Source: an uncultured Gemmatimonadaceae bacterium (GTDB lineage: Bacteria > Gemmatimonadota > Gemmatimonadetes > Gemmatimonadales > Gemmatimonadaceae). Taken from it: DNA of 64,000 bases. The notes under the pieces were generated by a model. The model was not told where the DNA came from, searched no databases, and saw only the letters and a program-made list of their open reading frames with translations. The stretch lies in assembly GCA_963829055.1 (NCBI GenBank), contig CAWHHI010000020.1, positions 128,001 to 192,000 of the forward strand, read 5' to 3'. Shown here piece by piece: positions 4,931 to 63,861 of this stretch. A program made the position numbers and the translations under genes. Position 1 is the stretch's first letter; each line of letters opens with the position of its first letter.

Positions 4931-6030
4931 GCGACCCTCGCGATCGGACTCGCTGCGCCCTGTGCGTGCATGTGATCGAGCATCGGGATCCAGAAGTCGC
5001 GGACGGGTGGCGCGCCACGACCGAGCAATGCTTCGGCGTTCGTCGTGTCGAAGCGCTTGGGCAGGGCCAGCTGCGGGACGAAGTGCGACAGCGCTCCCGC
5101 TATCCGCTTGAGCGACGCGTCACCGACGTCGGCGATCGTGCGCTCGAACAGCGAATACGTCGCGAGGTCCGTGATGGCGGGCCGAACGATCCCACGTTTG
5201 CGCCACGCTGGGTTCGTGGCCCAGCGCTCGTACGTGATGTCGAGCAGCTCGACGAGTGGCAGCGCGCCTTCACCCGCGCAGAGGTGAACCACTTTCCCAG
5301 CGGCGTCGTCGCGCAGCGCGAGCCGAGCGATGCCGTCGGCGACGAACGATGTCGTCACGGCGTCGACGGTGGAGCCCACGACGCCGGGCATCATCGCCAC
5401 CAATCCGTGGCGATAGAGATTGAGAGCACGATGCACGGCGTTTGTCTGCGTGACCTGGCCGGAAACGTCGTCGCAGACGACGGTGCTCGAGCGGAGGATG
5501 ACCCAGCTCGCCGCCTGGTCCATCACGAGTCGCTCGGCCTCGTACTTCGACTGCTCGTAGGCGTTCACCCAGCCGGCGTTCGCGGCGTGGAGATCTTCGG
5601 CGATCACGCCTGTCCGCCGACCAGCCACGAACGCCGTGCTGACGTACGCCACGCGCACGGGCGTTTCGCAATCATCAGCGATCTCCAACACGCGCTGCGT
5701 GCCGAGCGTGTTTACGGCGCGCGCGCGATCGAGCGGCGACGAGAACGTCGTGTCGGCGGCGAGATGAACGATCGCCGTCACGTCGCGGCAAATCGCGGCG
5801 CGCGCGTTAGGCTCGATGCCGAGCCCGTCGGCGCAGAGATCGCCGTGCACGGGGATGACACGACTCTGCTTGCCGAGCTCGCGTGCTGTGCGACGCCAGC
5901 GGTCGACGTCGCGCACGAGCACGAAGGCGCGGAGCCGGGAATCGGCCGCGAGCAGGCGCGCCAGCACGTCGCGGCCGAGCAGGCCGGTGGCGCCGGTGAC
6001 GAGAATCGAATGATCGGCGGACATGGTCAT
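4927..6030 (-). CDS. Thioester reductase / fatty-acyl reductase-type extended SDR (NAD_binding_4)
   Basis: ILVTGATGLLG, IVHLAA, VNTLGT, YVSTAFVAG, NAYEQSKYEAE. Start ATG 6030 overlaps the upstream stop. Confidence 0.8.
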   Translation of the reverse strand: MTMSADHSILVTGATGLLGRDVLARLLAADSRLRAFVLVRDVDRWRRTARELGKQSRVIPVHGDLCADGLGIEPNARAAICRDVTAIVHLAADTTFSSPLDRARAVNTLGTQRVLEIADDCETPVRVAYVSTAFVAGRRTGVIAEDLHAANAGWVNAYEQSKYEAERLVMDQAASWVILRSSTVVCDDVSGQVTQTNAVHRALNLYRHGLVAMMPGVVGSTVDAVTTSFVADGIARLALRDDAAGKVVHLCAGEGALPLVELLDITYERWATNPAWRKRGIVRPAITDLATYSLFERTIADVGDASLKRIAGALSHFVPQLALPKRFDTTNAEALLGRGAPPVRDFWIPMLDHMHAQGAASPIARVA

Positions 6031-7004
6031 GCCTCCAACGCCAGCGCCGTCCAGTGCGCGCCGTAGCCGTAAGAGAAAAGGAGCAGACGATCTCCGGGAC
6101 GCACGCTTCCGTCGCTCACCGCGTCGCGCAGATTGATGAAGTTGTCGCCGGCAAGCGTGTGTCCGATTCGCGCGATGTTCCGGCACCACAGACGCTCGCG
6201 TGGAATTCCCGTGAGGCCAAGCAGGATCTCCCAGCTGCGGATGCTGATGTTGTGGGGGATCACCCAGGTGACTTCGTCGGGGCGCCACCCCGCGCGTCGG
6301 AGCGTCTCCGCGATCACGTGCTTGGCGGTCGGGAAGTACGACGCGACGATCTCGTTGCGCATCGCGTCTCCCTGCCAGTAGTAGCCCTTGGTCGTGTGCG
6401 CCGACGCGAGAATGCGATTACGATCGGCGTTGTGGTCGACGAGCACCGCGCACGCCGCGTCGGCGGTGCAGTTGTAGATCGCCTCGCGGCCTGCGCCGAC
6501 GGGAAAGAACTCCGACGACACGCAGAGCACCCGTCGCGCATCTCCCGTTTCAACGAGGGCGCGCGCGACGCGCACCGCGCTGAAGAGCGACGTGCACGCC
6601 AATTGATCGAGCGCGAAGGTGGACGCGCACTCGAGGTCGAGGTCGTACTGCAGCCGCGTTGCGGGATACTGAAAGCGTTGCGTGCTGGAGATGTGACTCG
6701 TTGCGTCCACGGCGCTTCCGGCCGGCGCGAAAGCGACCGACGGCGTGCCGCAGTACAGCAGCGTATCGATGCTGTCGGGCGCGACGGAGTATTCGTGCAG
6801 CAGCGCCCTGGCCGCTTCGAGGGCCAGCGAGTACGGAGTCTCCTCTTCGGCGACGTACACATGGGAGAAGCCGAACTGTTCGAGTAGCGCGGGATCGCTT
6901 TCGAGCTGTCCAAGCGCGTGGAGCTCGCGCAGCGAGCGCCGTTGCGCAGGCAGCGCATACGCGATTGCGGAGATGCCAGCGATTCCGGGCGTCACGGCGG
7001 TCAC
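6027..7004 (-). CDS. KAS III (FabH)-like condensing enzyme with Cys-His-His triad
   Basis: QLACTS, ADAACAVLV, VIPHN, IGHTLAGD, GYGAHW. GTG 7004 is preceded by AGGAG. Confidence 0.8.
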   Translation of the reverse strand: MTAVTPGIAGISAIAYALPAQRRSLRELHALGQLESDPALLEQFGFSHVYVAEEETPYSLALEAARALLHEYSVAPDSIDTLLYCGTPSVAFAPAGSAVDATSHISSTQRFQYPATRLQYDLDLECASTFALDQLACTSLFSAVRVARALVETGDARRVLCVSSEFFPVGAGREAIYNCTADAACAVLVDHNADRNRILASAHTTKGYYWQGDAMRNEIVASYFPTAKHVIAETLRRAGWRPDEVTWVIPHNISIRSWEILLGLTGIPRERLWCRNIARIGHTLAGDNFINLRDAVSDGSVRPGDRLLLFSYGYGAHWTALALEA

Positions 7005-7243
7005 GAAAGCTCCTGTTTGTTCCCGGTGATCTCGCCGATGTCTCCGATCTCGAGCACGGCTGCGAGCAGGGGGCGTGGGTGGGAGACAGCGCACAACATC
7101 GGCGCGCGCCGTTATCCACGTGTTATCCAGCCGAACGCCCTGAAGTGCATGGGACTCAACGTGGCGAGCGACATCGGCTTCCTCGTCTCTGACGGACACG
7201 TGCACGATGCCGGTCGGCCGACGTTTTACGATATCGGTCGTGT

Positions 7244-7276
7244 TACGTAGTGGCCGGGCAGGCAATACGTAGTGGC
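7244..7276. promoter_or_regulatory. 11-bp direct repeat with 22-bp period upstream of the biosynthetic operon
   Basis: TACGTAGTGGC at 7244-7254 and 7266-7276; ACGT recurs at 7289. Confidence 0.4.
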
Positions 7277-7438
7277 GCCTTGCGAGAAACGTCCATTACG
7301 CATGCCGGACAAGGCGACCAGCTCGAGCGAGTCGATCCGCAGTCATCGACATCCACGTTCACGGCACTCCCACTCCGGCGGGCGCCCTTGGCAAGCGGTC
7401 GACCGTGAGCGAGCCCTCCCCGCACTCGCTCTCGTGGG

Positions 7439-7627
7439 TTGGTTGACGCGGGCTTTGGAAAGCGGATCATGTTCGGCTCCGACACTCCGGCGGGATCGGC
7501 TCGTCGGGGCATCGACGCCATCCTGGCCGCCGACTTCCTGACTGCGGAGCAGAAGGCGGACATCCTGTGCGGGAACGCGATGCGATTCTTGCGGCTTCCC
7601 GAAGCAGTGTGTCGTCCCGATCCGTGA
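7439..7627 (+). pseudogene. Amidohydrolase-family C-terminal remnant
   Basis: DAGFGKRIMFGSD..ADFLTAEQKADILCGNAMRFLRL; no N-terminal part upstream. Confidence 0.55.
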
Positions 7628-7688
7628 AGCACGCGCGTCCGGCATCGAACCACAGACACGTCGCCTAACGGCTAACCATGCCTAACGG

Positions 7689-62422: not shown

Positions 62423-62544
62423 TGGCCCTGTGGTACGTGGGTCGGCCGCGTTAGGCGGCCCATCCACACGATGGACCCGGACTCCCGTCACAACCTTCCG
62501 GTTGTCGCGCGCGGTTTGTTCCGGGTAGTACTCCGCGACGGCCG

Positions 62545-62645
62545 CCCTAACGCCATAGCTCAGCTGCAGGCGAGCCAAAACAACAGGCGTGGGCGACGCC
62601 CACGCCACTCCGAGGATCGACTGCCAGGTGCAGCGCTCGTTGGGC
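62545..62645 (-). mobile_element. attC site
   Basis: CCCTAAC-GCCATA-GCTCAGCTGCAG..CTGCCAGGTGCAGC-GCTC-GTTGGGC. Confidence 0.8.
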
Positions 62646-62693
62646 GGCAGCGCACAGGGGCCGCTCGCGGTCGCCCGGCTTCGCCCGCACGGT

Positions 62694-63585
62694 TCAACGA
62701 ATCCGCTCTCCGCGATTCTCTGGCCCAAGCTGGCCGGACTTCTCGGGATTGCGCCAGATCATGACGTCTTCAACAACGCGGACAGGCCCCGTAACCTCGT
62801 TGCCCGCCTTGAGCATGGCCGCATCAGCACTCGTCAACGTGGACCCCTGGTAGACGGCTGTCGTCGTCGTGTCGGTGCACCTGATGAGGCGCCAGCTGGT
62901 CGTCTCAAGGGTTGTCGATCCCTTGCGTTCGAATACTTCGAGCCCGTAGCCGTTGTGGGTGATCCACATTCCGGACTTGTCGGCGCTCAGATGTCGCCAC
63001 ACGCCGTCCTGCGCTTCGCAACCTTTCGGGCCGGTGTACGGAACGTTGCCCGCAAGGTTGCTTCGCATCCATCCGGCGGCCGCCACAATCGCGAGTGCTG
63101 CAGTGGCGACCTGCCAAGGCCACACGTTGGTTCGGGTTGTCGCCGCGGCTTGGGCTTCGTGTTCGCGCGCTGCTGTCGTGGGCGAGGGCCCGCTGAGCGC
63201 GTCGGCGAACAAAGCCGCGCTCTGGATACGGTCCGCGGGCAGCTTGGCGAGTGCGGCTAGGACCGTGCTATTCAAGGCAGACGGGACACTCGGCCGAAGC
63301 GCAGAAGGTGGGCGTGGTTGATCTTGCAGGATCTTCGCCACGATGGCCTGGACCGTCGCGCCGCTGAACGGCGGCTCTCCGGCAAGCATCTCGTACAATA
63401 CGCACCCGAGCGCGTAGACATCCGCTCGCGCCGTGATGGAGCGCTCTCCGAGGGCCTGCTCGGGACTCATGTACGCCGGTGTACCGAGCGAAATGCCCGT
63501 CTGCGTCATGCGCTCGCCCCCGGCCGACGTCACTGCCAACGCGATGCCAAAATCGGCGATCAGAGCTTGCCCTTCGTGAAGGTTC
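62694..63585 (-). pseudogene. Ser/Thr kinase lacking its N-lobe
   Basis: Begins at LHEGQALIADFGIA..GTPAYMSPEQ; no Gly loop, VAIK or HRD upstream. Confidence 0.7.
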
Positions 63586-63801
63586 AGAAGGGGCCGCGCG
63601 CTGAAGGGCTGCGCTCGCACGTATCAGGTGTCGCTGGTGTCTGGCGCGGCGCGTCGCGGGGACGGGCCCCAGCCAGCACGGATAGAAGTCGACCCGTGAG
63701 CCGTCGGGCTCCCCTGGTCTCGAGCAGCCGCCAGCATCCGGGCGTCGTAGGGAGGGAACGGAACGTGGTCAAAACGGCGTGACGCCGTGTAGTCGGCTAT
63801 T

Positions 63802-63861
63802 GCCTAACACACAGGGAGCTTGACAAACCACTGCTCATAGAAGCTGCAACGTACGTTAGGC
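63802..63861 (-). mobile_element. attC-like site (degenerate left arm)
   Basis: GCCTAAC..TGCAACGTACGTTAGGC; the last 17 bp are identical to the end of the 45525 site. Confidence 0.6.

Follow-up and report, generated by a model that had tools for sequence, protein, structure and literature searches.

A hyper-abundant octamer in genomes of Gemmatimonadota that resembles DNA uptake sequences and coincides with the integron attC R' box

In Neisseriaceae and Pasteurellaceae, DNA uptake is enhanced by short genomic words, the DNA uptake sequence (DUS) and the uptake signal sequence (USS) respectively, which are the uptake-enhancing sequences named in the accessible text of 10.1101/2025.10.24.684340. 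Another hyper-abundant word is HIP1 (highly iterated palindrome 1; GCGATCGC) of cyanobacteria, an octamer that, in the available part of PMC5861425, is described as 15-300-fold over-represented, located in genes, spread by substitution, conserved, non-randomly spaced and of debated function. Here, we analyse a stretch of 64,000 nucleotides from an uncultured Gemmatimonadaceae bacterium (contig CAWHHI010000020.1, positions 128,001 to 192,000; hereafter the window), in which the heptamer CGTTAGG, belonging to the octamer CGTTAGGC, is scattered within and between ordinary genes. It represents a hyper-abundant genomic word in a new phylum, although the kind itself is already known. We tentatively consider CGTTAGGC to be a DUS/USS-like word spread by drive on DNA segments, most probably through biased uptake or recombination, and assign this reading a probability of roughly 0.4. 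The earlier note on this DNA knew no description of such a motif for this kind of organism, and the titles and abstracts listed in literature searches likewise contain no uptake word or hyper-abundant word of Gemmatimonadota; a literature search for the literal word returned primers and constructs only.

DUS, with the minor pilin ComP as its receptor, and USS are likewise short non-palindromic words, present on both strands at about 0.6-0.8 per kb. They share with CGTTAGGC that many copies lie inside genes in several frames, with over-representation of the encoded peptides (available parts of PMC2817400 and 10.1101/2025.10.24.684340), that the word is scarcer in atypical genes and is a lineage mark common to related species, and that genes for a type IV pilus, ComEA, ComEC and DprA are present. 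In contrast to DUS and USS, CGTTAGGC occurs in another phylum and in uncultured hosts, has 8 nt without flanking AT-rich segments, uses rare instead of preferred codons, is not concentrated as inverted pairs in terminators, shows no dialects (relative G007 scanned) and coincides with the R' box of integron attC sites. Like HIP1, the octamer is in large excess (80-160-fold), regularly spaced and found within and between genes; however, HIP1 is palindromic, comes with orphan methyltransferases and is nearly phylum-wide, whereas CGTTAGGC is asymmetric, has no correlated methyltransferase that we found and is confined, in our phylum sample, to ~10 genera of one order. The attC R' and R'' boxes and the secondary attG sites are related to it in that the order's R' box has the same sequence, but most copies lie in ordinary genes, unpaired and independent of IntI. 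Chi and the FtsK-orienting polar sequences (KOPS) are also short over-represented words read by DNA-processing machines, but they are polar, unlike CGTTAGGC.

Abundance and silent recoding of the octamer

The window corresponds to G000:C20:128001-192000, G000 being the 7.78-Mb source assembly (20 contigs, 66.5% GC, completeness 86%, contamination 4%). Exact counting returned 46 copies of CGTTAGG/CCTAACG, of which the earlier note had counted about 46 by hand, with identical coordinates, but the expectation of about 7 copies given there was too high, as dinucleotide-preserving shuffles contained 3.2 copies on average and 9 at most (n=100). The base at position +8 of these copies is C in 33, T in 8, G in 5 and A in none, indicating that the true word is the octamer CGTTAGGC, a non-palindromic word with GCCTAACG as its reverse-strand form. 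Genome-wide, CGTTAGG is present in 6,391 copies on 20 of 20 contigs at 0.64-1.09 per kb, and CGTTAGGC in 5,004 copies where a motif-masked Markov model expects 31-61, an 80-160-fold excess. The abundance of ~0.8 per kb falls in the range of DUS, USS and HIP1, with a density in G000 of 0.72 per kb in confident coding sequences (CDS) and about 1.0 per kb elsewhere. Of the genomic occurrences of TTAG, TTAGG and GTTAGG, 72%, 86% and 90%, respectively, belong to the heptamer; because these sub-words themselves carry the enrichment, k-mer ranking under a maximal-order Markov model is blind to the word and missed it, and lower-order and motif-masked models were used instead. The logo of 6,390 copies shows unconserved flanks except for weak preferences at -3 to -1 and +9, beyond which just the 3-nt periodicity of coding DNA is visible. 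As there is no extended flanking consensus, the word is not part of a longer repeat.

Owing to indel errors in the assembly, the gene callers (codon-usage and dicodon) reached a coverage of only 68-73% of the genome, and the frame analyses therefore rest on local dicodon scores, computed over 50 codons on either side of each copy, and on confident genes only. By this scoring, 2,774 copies in G000 are flanked on both sides by sequence with coding potential in one common frame, and they are read as cg-TTA-gg (Leu; 1,128), CCT-AAC (Pro-Asn; 810), c-CTA-ACG (Leu-Thr; 499) and c-GTT-AGG (Val-Arg; 319), all four stop-free frames being occupied on both strands. The two frames that create a stop codon account for just 18 of the 2,774. 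Copies with coding potential upstream only comprise 169 with TAG and 192 with TAA, corresponding to stop-frame copies at the ends of coding regions. Each of the readings listed in the earlier note, x-Leu(TTA)-Gly, Val-Arg(AGG), Leu(CTA)-Thr, Pro-Asn, Arg-stop and Ala-stop, was observed.

The excess persists under a codon-preserving null: the 4,809 confident CDS contain 3,617 copies, compared to 264-318 after synonymous shuffling and 149-169 after shuffling of codon order. That rare codons are forced by the word was borne out as well, since 56% of all TTA codons sit inside it, next to 19% of CTA, 13% of CCT and 8% of AGG codons in confident genes. Synonymous recoding on both strands strongly supports the proposal of the earlier note that the signal acts at the DNA level, independent of frame and strand. 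The word encodes 1,058 of 1,737 P-N-[GVADE] peptides (61%), 1,402 of 5,042 [SPTA]-L-G peptides (28%), 687 of 8,452 x-L-T peptides and 470 of 11,263 x-V-R peptides, and the dipeptide P-N has an observed/expected ratio of 1.39, ranking 7 among all dipeptides. This P-N excess in G000 recalls the doubling of USS-encoded tripeptides mentioned in the accessible text of PMC2817400.

A separate group of over-represented words, TCGGAATGA, TGTCATCC and TCCGAGCGGA in G000 and CCGGAATGAC and ATTCCGGCGAAAGCC in G007 (L112-L131), looks like a longer palindromic intergenic repeat resembling repetitive extragenic palindromic (REP) elements, common to the family and unrelated to CGTTAGGC.

Distribution, turnover and reliability of the copies

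Named relatives of one window protein are overwhelmingly metagenome-assembled genomes of Gemmatimonadales/Gemmatimonadaceae (64-71% identity). The word is present in relatives: six of six sister-species assemblies, each of about 260-1,170 contigs, contain 2,501-5,112 copies of the octamer compared to 255-335 of a reversed-word control. Neither outcome that the earlier note named as a refutation, a lack of enrichment under a codon-preserving null or absence from genomes of relatives, was observed. In a set of 41 relatives, all 7 genomes of the source genus are enriched, and the most enriched genome belongs to another genus (G014; 6,360 copies in 5.1 Mb), where the word tops an unbiased k-mer scan of 260 sampled kb with the same logo as in G000. 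Six genomes are intermediate (G010, G019, G020, G036, G038 and G040; copies in G010 and G020 are dispersed on both strands), and most other relatives of this set have fewer copies than control. In an RpoB tree, g1, G014, G020 and G021 form one clade (support 90/97) with 643, 397, 682, 1,247, 224 and 54 copies per Mb, compared to 1-37 in the rest of the family, and a weaker focus lies in another family (G040 187, G036 119 and G038 52 copies per Mb). A phylum sample of 401 genomes from 147 genera, tallied by our own reading of the count table, contains 16 genomes, from 10 genera, in which copies number 400 or more and exceed the control more than twofold; nine of these genera belong to the source family and one (g77) to a second family, and in families f4-f12, 0 of 135 genomes exceed their own control. 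Four unpublished genomes (G013, G085, G124 and G203) are included in the 41- and 401-genome tallies, none of which is enriched or underlies a conclusion. Sharp differences exist within genera, with 66 copies in G293 of genus g46 compared to 3,479-4,141 in G240, G297 and G401, and with 181-1,061 copies in genus g77. Enrichment is thus a heritable, graded clade trait of ~10 genera of one Gemmatimonadota order in this sample.

Copies are made by point substitution, mainly synonymous, into otherwise rare codons. In codon alignments of rpoB (20 sequences) and rpoC (14 sequences), most copies fall on peptides that are invariant in the order (ALG, PLG, GLT, PNV, PNG, YLT, SLT and IVR), where synonymous changes such as CTC/CTG to TTA, CTC to CTA, CCG to CCT and GTG.CGG to GTT.AGG generate the word; a few changes are non-synonymous, e.g. 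PDG to PNG in G014. The same permissive columns are used in different genera and in another family: column 955 in G000, G004, G005 and G014, column 1279 also in G040, and column 682 also in G036. Copy numbers in rpoB/rpoC are 26 in 14 kb in G014, 8 in 15 kb in G000, 5 in 4.75 kb in G005 and 2 in 5.3 kb in G004, with 2, 3, 1 and 0 in the intermediate G020, G036, G040 and G038; of 12 non-enriched genomes sampled, 11 have no copy and G017 has 1. Where the window is syntenic with DNA of sister species (73-80% identity), its 11 copies divide into 3 shared and 8 private ones, and in a core-gene region (type IV pilus, topA, aroK; 80-82% identity) 13 of 26 pairwise comparisons are shared, both being small, non-independent samples. 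The relatives have 7 private copies within the window-syntenic stretches, and each relative has 4-7 in the core-gene region. Non-shared sites of the window differ by in-register point variants, e.g. TTA versus CTG at 17134 and 18034. Sharing of all 7-nt windows in the core-gene region amounts to 0.25-0.29, which would make the word sites ~1.8x more conserved than background.

An artefact of sequencing or assembly, such as a systematic basecalling error at a modified motif, had to be considered, as consensus errors do exist: 1-nt indels at window positions 9643, 10891, 11113, 11143 and 16088 are contradicted by contigs of several independent runs, and real genes are frameshifted (a TonB receptor, a Ser/Thr kinase at 19493-21586 and a MacB/FtsX permease at 25423-27196), lowering the apparent coding density to about 73%. 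However, stop frames hold only 18 of the 2,774 copies with two-sided coding potential, the word recurs in the six sister-species assemblies and in another genus, frequently at identical codons, and window copies are reproduced in contigs of other studies. In the contigs of run X1, 8 of 11 copies in 9001-19000 were strictly verified, with differences only outside the motif, and 0 of 40 listed substitutions fall inside a copy, 72 further substitutions lying outside the list. Runs X4 and X18 cover the stretch in part; the copy at 14239 has no near-identical piece among those listed and the copy at 11893 is in a contig piece with one difference outside the list. We give an artefact practically no credence and reject it. 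The commonest substitution between the window and the X1 contigs is A>G (29 of 90 places of change).

Near-identical DNA to window positions 9001-19000 was present in 20 runs from 17 studies, comprising rhizosphere, soil and freshwater-sediment metagenomes of 2016-2024, and the organism appears widespread in plant-associated soils.

Spacing, recognition profile and polarity

Copies repel each other below 200 nt and are spaced more regularly than random. Compared to an exponential of equal mean, gaps below 50 nt are found at 0.25x, of 50-100 nt at 0.33x and of 100-200 nt at 0.55x, while gaps of 0.4-1.5 kb are found at 1.2-1.4x and those above 3 kb at about 0.8x. All of 24 control 7-mers of equal abundance have a short-gap ratio of 1.03-1.77 and a coefficient of variation of 1.02-1.22, compared to 0.41 and 0.91 for the motif. 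Genome-wide, pairs within 30 nt are direct in 20 and 12 cases and inverted in 4 and 4.

This regularity is what the chief rival explanation would predict, namely that the word is, like HIP1, the binding site of an abundant DNA-binding protein (for nucleoid organisation, condensin-type loading or repair scanning) under selection for regular density. The short-range repulsion and the fewer long gaps, the apparent ~1.8x better conservation of sites compared to average 7-mers, a variant spectrum resembling a protein recognition profile, the lack of replication polarity and the heritable clade distribution all agree with it, and for HIP1 itself a case for selection and a nucleoid role has been made on the grounds of conservation and periodicity (accessible text of PMC5861425). 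On the other hand, half or more of the copies are unshared between species of one genus, private copies being present in each, and the g46 species G293 has 66 copies against 3,479-4,141 in three others, showing that the word is dispensable to a cell. A candidate protein was not found, and the deficit in genes of low GC or atypical codon usage, described below, needs the extra assumption of slow amelioration. We know of no bacterial architectural system that places exact 8-mers by the thousand within genes and pays for them with rare codons. The selected-site model fits spacing and conservation as well as uptake does, but turnover and within-genus loss less well, and although credible we hold it to be unlikely.

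After motif masking, excess of one-mismatch variants is confined to certain positions: 8-33x at position 1, 6-41x at position 8, 10.5x for 6G>T, 2.9x for 4T>C (about +1,150 copies) and 3x for 3T>C, whereas variants at positions 2, 5 and 7 are at background level, transitions included. Such a profile resembles recognition by a protein and not plain mutational decay. The integron R box has the consensus GTTRRRY and its inverse core RYYYAAC; the spectrum of tolerated variants differs from the degeneracy of GTTRRRY. Some one-mismatch variants had seemed depleted, but this stemmed from a motif-inflated model and was mostly gone after masking.

The point substitutions that create copies, together with the missing decay products at positions 2, 5 and 7, as if repaired back, could also suit a site-autonomous bias in mutation or repair (very-short-patch style) that converts near-cognates to CGTTAGGC, possibly coupled to methylation, the more so since HIP1 is linked with orphan methyltransferases in the available part of PMC4390886. 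However, PF00145 (C5), PF03852 (Vsr), PF01555 (N4/N6) and PF02384 (N6_Mtase) were not found in the 86%-complete G000, while control genomes matched. The single DNA methyltransferase found there among the families searched is of the D12 class and does not track enrichment, as many non-enriched genera have it and the search gave no match in G014, G020, G019, G010, G036 and G040. Moreover, the word is no palindrome, two changes are required for many of its copies (CTC to TTA, GTG.CGG to GTT.AGG), random or clustered spacing would be predicted where short-range repulsion is observed, and near-cognates are not strongly depleted after masking (0.64-1.5x). Spacing and missing enzymes make biased repair the least fitting of the three mechanisms, uptake-type drive, selected binding site and biased repair, and we regard it as improbable.

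As a short over-represented word, CGTTAGGC might also be a Chi-like recombination hotspot or a KOPS-like guide for a translocase, and an AddAB-type enzyme is probably present in G000, judging from two PDDEXK_1 nuclease domains 3.6 kb apart on C15; RecC was not found. Chi sites are oriented, and Chi was among the options raised by the earlier note. When leading and lagging strands were assigned from cumulative GC skew and gene-strand bias over 5.16 Mb of replichores, 2,066 leading and 2,025 lagging copies were counted (50.5% vs 49.5%), whereas the control word GGGCAGGG, the most polar 8-mer of G000, gave 163 and 44, showing that polarity is detectable in this assembly and absent for CGTTAGGC. 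We take GGGCAGGG to fit the KOPS consensus GGGNAGGG. An 80-160-fold excess, forced rare codons and short-range repulsion are also unlike known Chi sites. It is because of these properties of the word itself, and not of the absence of an enzyme, that Chi is rejected; together with KOPS it is left with a very small probability. In the same replichore map, a switch lies on C16 at ~540 kb, close to a match to an Xer-type recombinase (C16:541419-541592), and this is probably the terminus/dif region.

Word density rises from 0.44 per kb in the lowest to 0.97 per kb in the highest GC quintile of genes, opposite to the prediction from composition, and from 0.63 to 0.82 per kb across quintiles of dicodon score (codon nativeness), a slightly circular test as the model was trained on genes containing the word. 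Three islands of 31-50 kb at contig ends are free of the motif (G000:C6:5440-55038, C6:591808-623330 and C11:1-44055). They encode housekeeping genes (aromatic amino-acid biosynthesis, FtsK, GlnA, FolD, GreA), those on C6 have a GC content of 0.70 and 0.73, and all are likely chimeric joins or foreign DNA.

Integron coincidence and the proposed drive on DNA segments

The earlier note had remarked that the word is identical to the attC R box, and all 8 of 8 positions indeed match the R' box of this order, the preceding C included. In the non-enriched genomes G027 and G025 the word forms the 3' end of conserved attC repeats; on G027:C95 the inverse core CCTAAC lies 79-127 nt upstream in 19 of 26 sites, at a repeat spacing of mostly about 500-700 nt. 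Small genes of cassette type abound at window positions 28000-64000 (glyoxalase, SnoaL, PIN, RibD_C, methyltransferase, DNA-alkylation repair, MBL fold), and the attC-type sites between them occur in either orientation. Based on our own gene calls and Pfam-supported open reading frames (ORFs), the 46 window copies comprise 21 genic copies in non-stop frames, 3 stop codons of Pfam-supported genes and 22 intergenic or attC-associated copies. Of the stop codons proposed in the earlier note, those at 37060, 57561 (both TAG) and 60406 (TAA) stand, but at 27627 no supported gene ends. A simple test for an attC partner was too strict, recognising only the site 35143-35194 and mislabelling the genic copy 10575, and all other attC-type labels of intergenic copies below were assigned by eye.

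5805..5811, plus strand: in CDS 4927-6288 (minus), NAD_binding_4 reductase, CCT-AAC (Pro-Asn); sequence differs in the G005 orthologue
7664..7670, minus strand: intergenic, first of a tandem direct pair 17 nt apart
7681..7687, minus strand: intergenic, second of the tandem direct pair with the 7664 copy
10218..10224, plus strand: in TonB-dependent receptor gene 9719-12070 (plus), cg-TTA-gg (Leu); intact in independent contigs; CGCTAGG in G002
10575..10581, plus strand: same receptor gene 9719-12070 (plus), TTA (Leu); common to the G002 orthologue
10725..10731, plus strand: same receptor gene, TTA (Leu); common to the G002 orthologue
11230..11236, minus strand: same receptor gene, c-CTA-ACG (Leu-Thr)
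11893..11899, plus strand: same receptor gene, c-GTT-AGG (Val-Arg)
14239..14245, plus strand: in BTAD/TPR regulator gene 12775-15237 (minus), Leu-Thr
14596..14602, minus strand: same regulator gene, Val-Arg; common to the G005 orthologue
17134..17140, plus strand: in gene 16848-18296 (plus), GCG-TTA-GGC; synonymous GCG-CTG-GGC in G005
17890..17896, plus strand: same gene, TTA (Leu)
18034..18040, plus strand: same gene, ACG-TTA-GGC; synonymous ACG-CTG-GGC in G005
18346..18352, plus strand: intergenic, in a hairpin loop (cagggcacct-motif-tgccctg) directly after the end of gene 16848-18296
20694..20700, minus strand: in Ser/Thr kinase gene 19493-20857 (minus), TTA (Leu)
20968..20974, minus strand: located where an assembly frameshift breaks the kinase gene (19493-21586) in two
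23615..23621, plus strand: unannotated stretch of fragmented ORFs (22.5-25.4 kb)
26044..26050, minus strand: in MacB/FtsX permease fragment 25423-26487 (minus), Val-Arg
26548..26554, plus strand: in MacB_PCD fragment 26210-27196 (minus), Pro-Asn
27305..27311, plus strand: in PadR regulator gene 27212-27544 (minus), Leu-Thr
27627..27633, plus strand: intergenic by gene calls; only an unsupported ORF, 27629-28147 (minus), would end here
28713..28719, plus strand: intergenic, flanked by two small genes
30019..30025, minus strand: intergenic, attC-type upstream context (caggtgaacttcatg)
30613..30619, plus strand: in PAS/histidine-kinase gene 30034-32496 (minus), Leu-Thr
34389..34395, plus strand: intergenic, attC-type context
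35144..35150, minus strand: R'' (inverse core) box of the perfect short attC 35143-35194, 0 mismatches to its partner
35187..35193, plus strand: R' (core) box of attC 35143-35194
35835..35841, minus strand: in a weak 60-aa ORF call, 35822-36001; possibly intergenic
37060..37066, minus strand: TAG stop (Arg-stop) of alpha/beta-hydrolase gene 37061-37993 (minus)
38086..38092, plus strand: intergenic
40411..40417, minus strand: intergenic, directly after esterase gene 38718-40400 (plus)
42617..42623, plus strand: intergenic
45526..45532, minus strand: intergenic, attC-type context (caggtgaacttgatg)
45645..45651, plus strand: intergenic, attC-type context
48813..48819, minus strand: in MacB/FtsX permease gene 48435-51023 (plus), Pro-Asn
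50528..50534, minus strand: same permease gene, Leu-Thr
55883..55889, minus strand: intergenic, attC-type context (cagctcaacttgagg)
55995..56001, plus strand: in a weak 71-aa ORF call, 55987-56199 (minus), Pro-Asn
57561..57567, minus strand: TAG stop of HI0933-like flavoprotein gene 57562-58920 (minus)
60406..60412, minus strand: TAA stop (Ala-stop) of DNA-alkylation-repair gene 58986-60410 (plus)
60964..60970, minus strand: attC-type context, inside a weak ORF call (60610-61029) without Pfam match
61214..61220, minus strand: intergenic, attC-type context
61303..61309, plus strand: intergenic, attC-type context
62449..62455, plus strand: intergenic, directly after metallo-beta-lactamase-fold gene 61355-62422 (plus)
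62546..62552, minus strand: intergenic, attC-type context
63854..63860, plus strand: intergenic, attC-type context

The tandem direct repeat at 7664-7687 has a 17-nt unit (gctagcCGTTAGGc, catggttagcCGTTAGGc). The hairpin at 18336-18359 has a perfect 7-bp stem (cagggca..tgccctg) in a terminator-like setting, unlike most copies.

The shared box raises the option, also put forward in the earlier note, of a genome-wide pool of integron-integrase secondary sites, or of a by-product of the integrase. It gains from the 8/8 identity with the R' box of non-enriched relatives, from true attC sites in the window, of which 35143-35194 is a perfect one, and from the frequency of integrons in the order, the integron integrase family TIGR02249 being over cut-off in 24 of 41 related genomes, many of them non-enriched. 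Enrichment, however, does not follow the integrase in these 41 genomes: the enriched G002 and G004 (84% and 92% complete) have matches at Xer level only, intI of the most enriched G014 is frameshifted and many non-enriched genomes have it intact. In G000, intI lies at C20:208041-208958, ~16 kb past the right end of the window, with 265.7 bits at a cut-off of 265, and a second, N-terminal fragment at C4:2862-3170. Among the 6,391 copies, adjacent -/+ pairs (inverse core, then core) within 200 nt number 85 and the +/- arrangement 92, which means that attC-type pairs hold at most about 3% of copies and that at least ~97% have no attC partner or hairpin. The tolerated variants are unlike GTTRRRY, thousands of good insertion sites in rpoB, rpoC and other core genes would be harmful, and synonymous point substitutions are not producible by any integrase reaction. 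Published attG sites, furthermore, require only GWT and insertions avoid essential genes (available text of 10.1101/2022.09.11.507474). We therefore reject such a pool as highly improbable. The identity with the attC R' box is explained by none of the models tested.

Taken together, the data require a directional, orientation-independent force on double-stranded DNA that overrides codon preference, is active per species and senses an existing copy within a few hundred bases. A segment bias of the DUS/USS type predicts all these features as well as the deficit in atypical genes, and is favoured for that reason. In this scheme, CGTTAGGC would be a double-stranded DNA word read by a protein, with a core at positions 2-7 and tolerant positions 1 and 8, and DNA segments bearing it would be favoured in exchange between conspecifics. 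Most probably, the type IV pilus/ComEA/ComEC machinery would bind and import such DNA preferentially and homologous replacement would follow, by which word-containing alleles would displace word-less ones (molecular drive). Wherever proteins tolerate the word, copies would then build up, chiefly as synonymous changes towards rare codons, and the drive would finally be balanced by mutation, codon selection and a diminishing gain per fragment. By analogy with DUS and USS, the reading step would be DNA uptake, with a putative receptor in a presumably competent cell.

Genes for transformation are present in G000, comprising ComEC, DprA, a ComEA-like gene and a type IVa pilus cluster with PilM, PilO, PilQ(AMIN), two pilins, the prepilin-type minor pilin P0002 and the PilX-like P0001. 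The cluster is headed by two tandem pilin genes (G000:C12:401938-402980), 98% identical over 132 residues, downstream of which follow the minor pilin, the PilX-like protein, PilM, PilO, PilQ(AMIN), aroK and aroC; several relatives, e.g. G017 and G034, have many pilin paralogues.

A number of points speak against biased uptake. The ComEA-type domain occurs in 40 of 41 genomes and pilins in 41 of 41, including relatives without the word, and such competence genes, equally present in non-enriched relatives, do not explain the lineage specificity. The minor pilin P0002, the only one tested, does not track enrichment across genomes, and neither do the integron integrase, the ComEA domain, the two tandem pilins or the D12 methyltransferase. 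The organism is known solely as a metagenome-assembled genome, and uptake would be attributed to it by analogy. Close inverted pairs are not favoured in G000 (13 and 15, compared to 29 and 24 direct pairs within 60 nt; terminators themselves were not scanned), whereas about half of DUS and USS copies lie in terminators according to the accessible part of 10.1101/2025.10.24.684340. G007, the sole non-enriched relative scanned (400 kb), has no alternative dialect, only the REP-like palindromic repeat. Finally, an uptake model does not predict that the word exactly equals the attC R' box, and a selected binding site would lead one to expect regular spacing and above-background conservation just as much.

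The segment-level, drive-type evidence would serve just as well if the vehicle were another one, the word being the packaging, nicking or entry site of a particle resembling gene transfer agents, of a conjugative or type IV secretion system, or of a recombination initiator. HIP1 correlates phylogenetically with a type IV secretion system in the available text of PMC13756078. The present data do not separate such a vehicle from uptake, and we give it a slim chance only.

For the lineages concerned, the word means that codon usage (56% of TTA codons) and peptide content are distorted. It is of practical use as a strong taxonomic watermark that can flag chimeric contigs and foreign DNA in metagenome bins of these lineages, and it could help to judge bin purity. 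DUS, USS and HIP1, the hyper-abundant words known to us, each opened a view on self-DNA recognition in gene exchange, and with the function of HIP1 unsettled after three decades, a fourth independent case would offer a natural test of molecular drive versus selection. Because the intensity is graded across sister genera and contrasts are found within genera (66 vs ~4,000), the responsible gene should be findable by phylogenetic profiling.

Identity with the attC R' box, together with the finding that cassettes reach the chromosomal integron of Vibrio cholerae through natural transformation (accessible text of PMC12614218), raises a testable link between uptake and the integron pool and makes a functional connection between an uptake tag and attC conceivable. 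The uptake signal might have converged on or been recruited from the attC R' box, transformation and cassette capture being mechanistically coupled, which we think rather unlikely. If true, every circulating cassette would already bear one or two uptake tags, and enriched genera, in their competent cells, would take in cassette DNA by preference, which would fold into attC substrates on entry. The word would then be without precedent both as an uptake sequence beyond the Proteobacteria and as a connection of uptake specificity with the integron gene pool.

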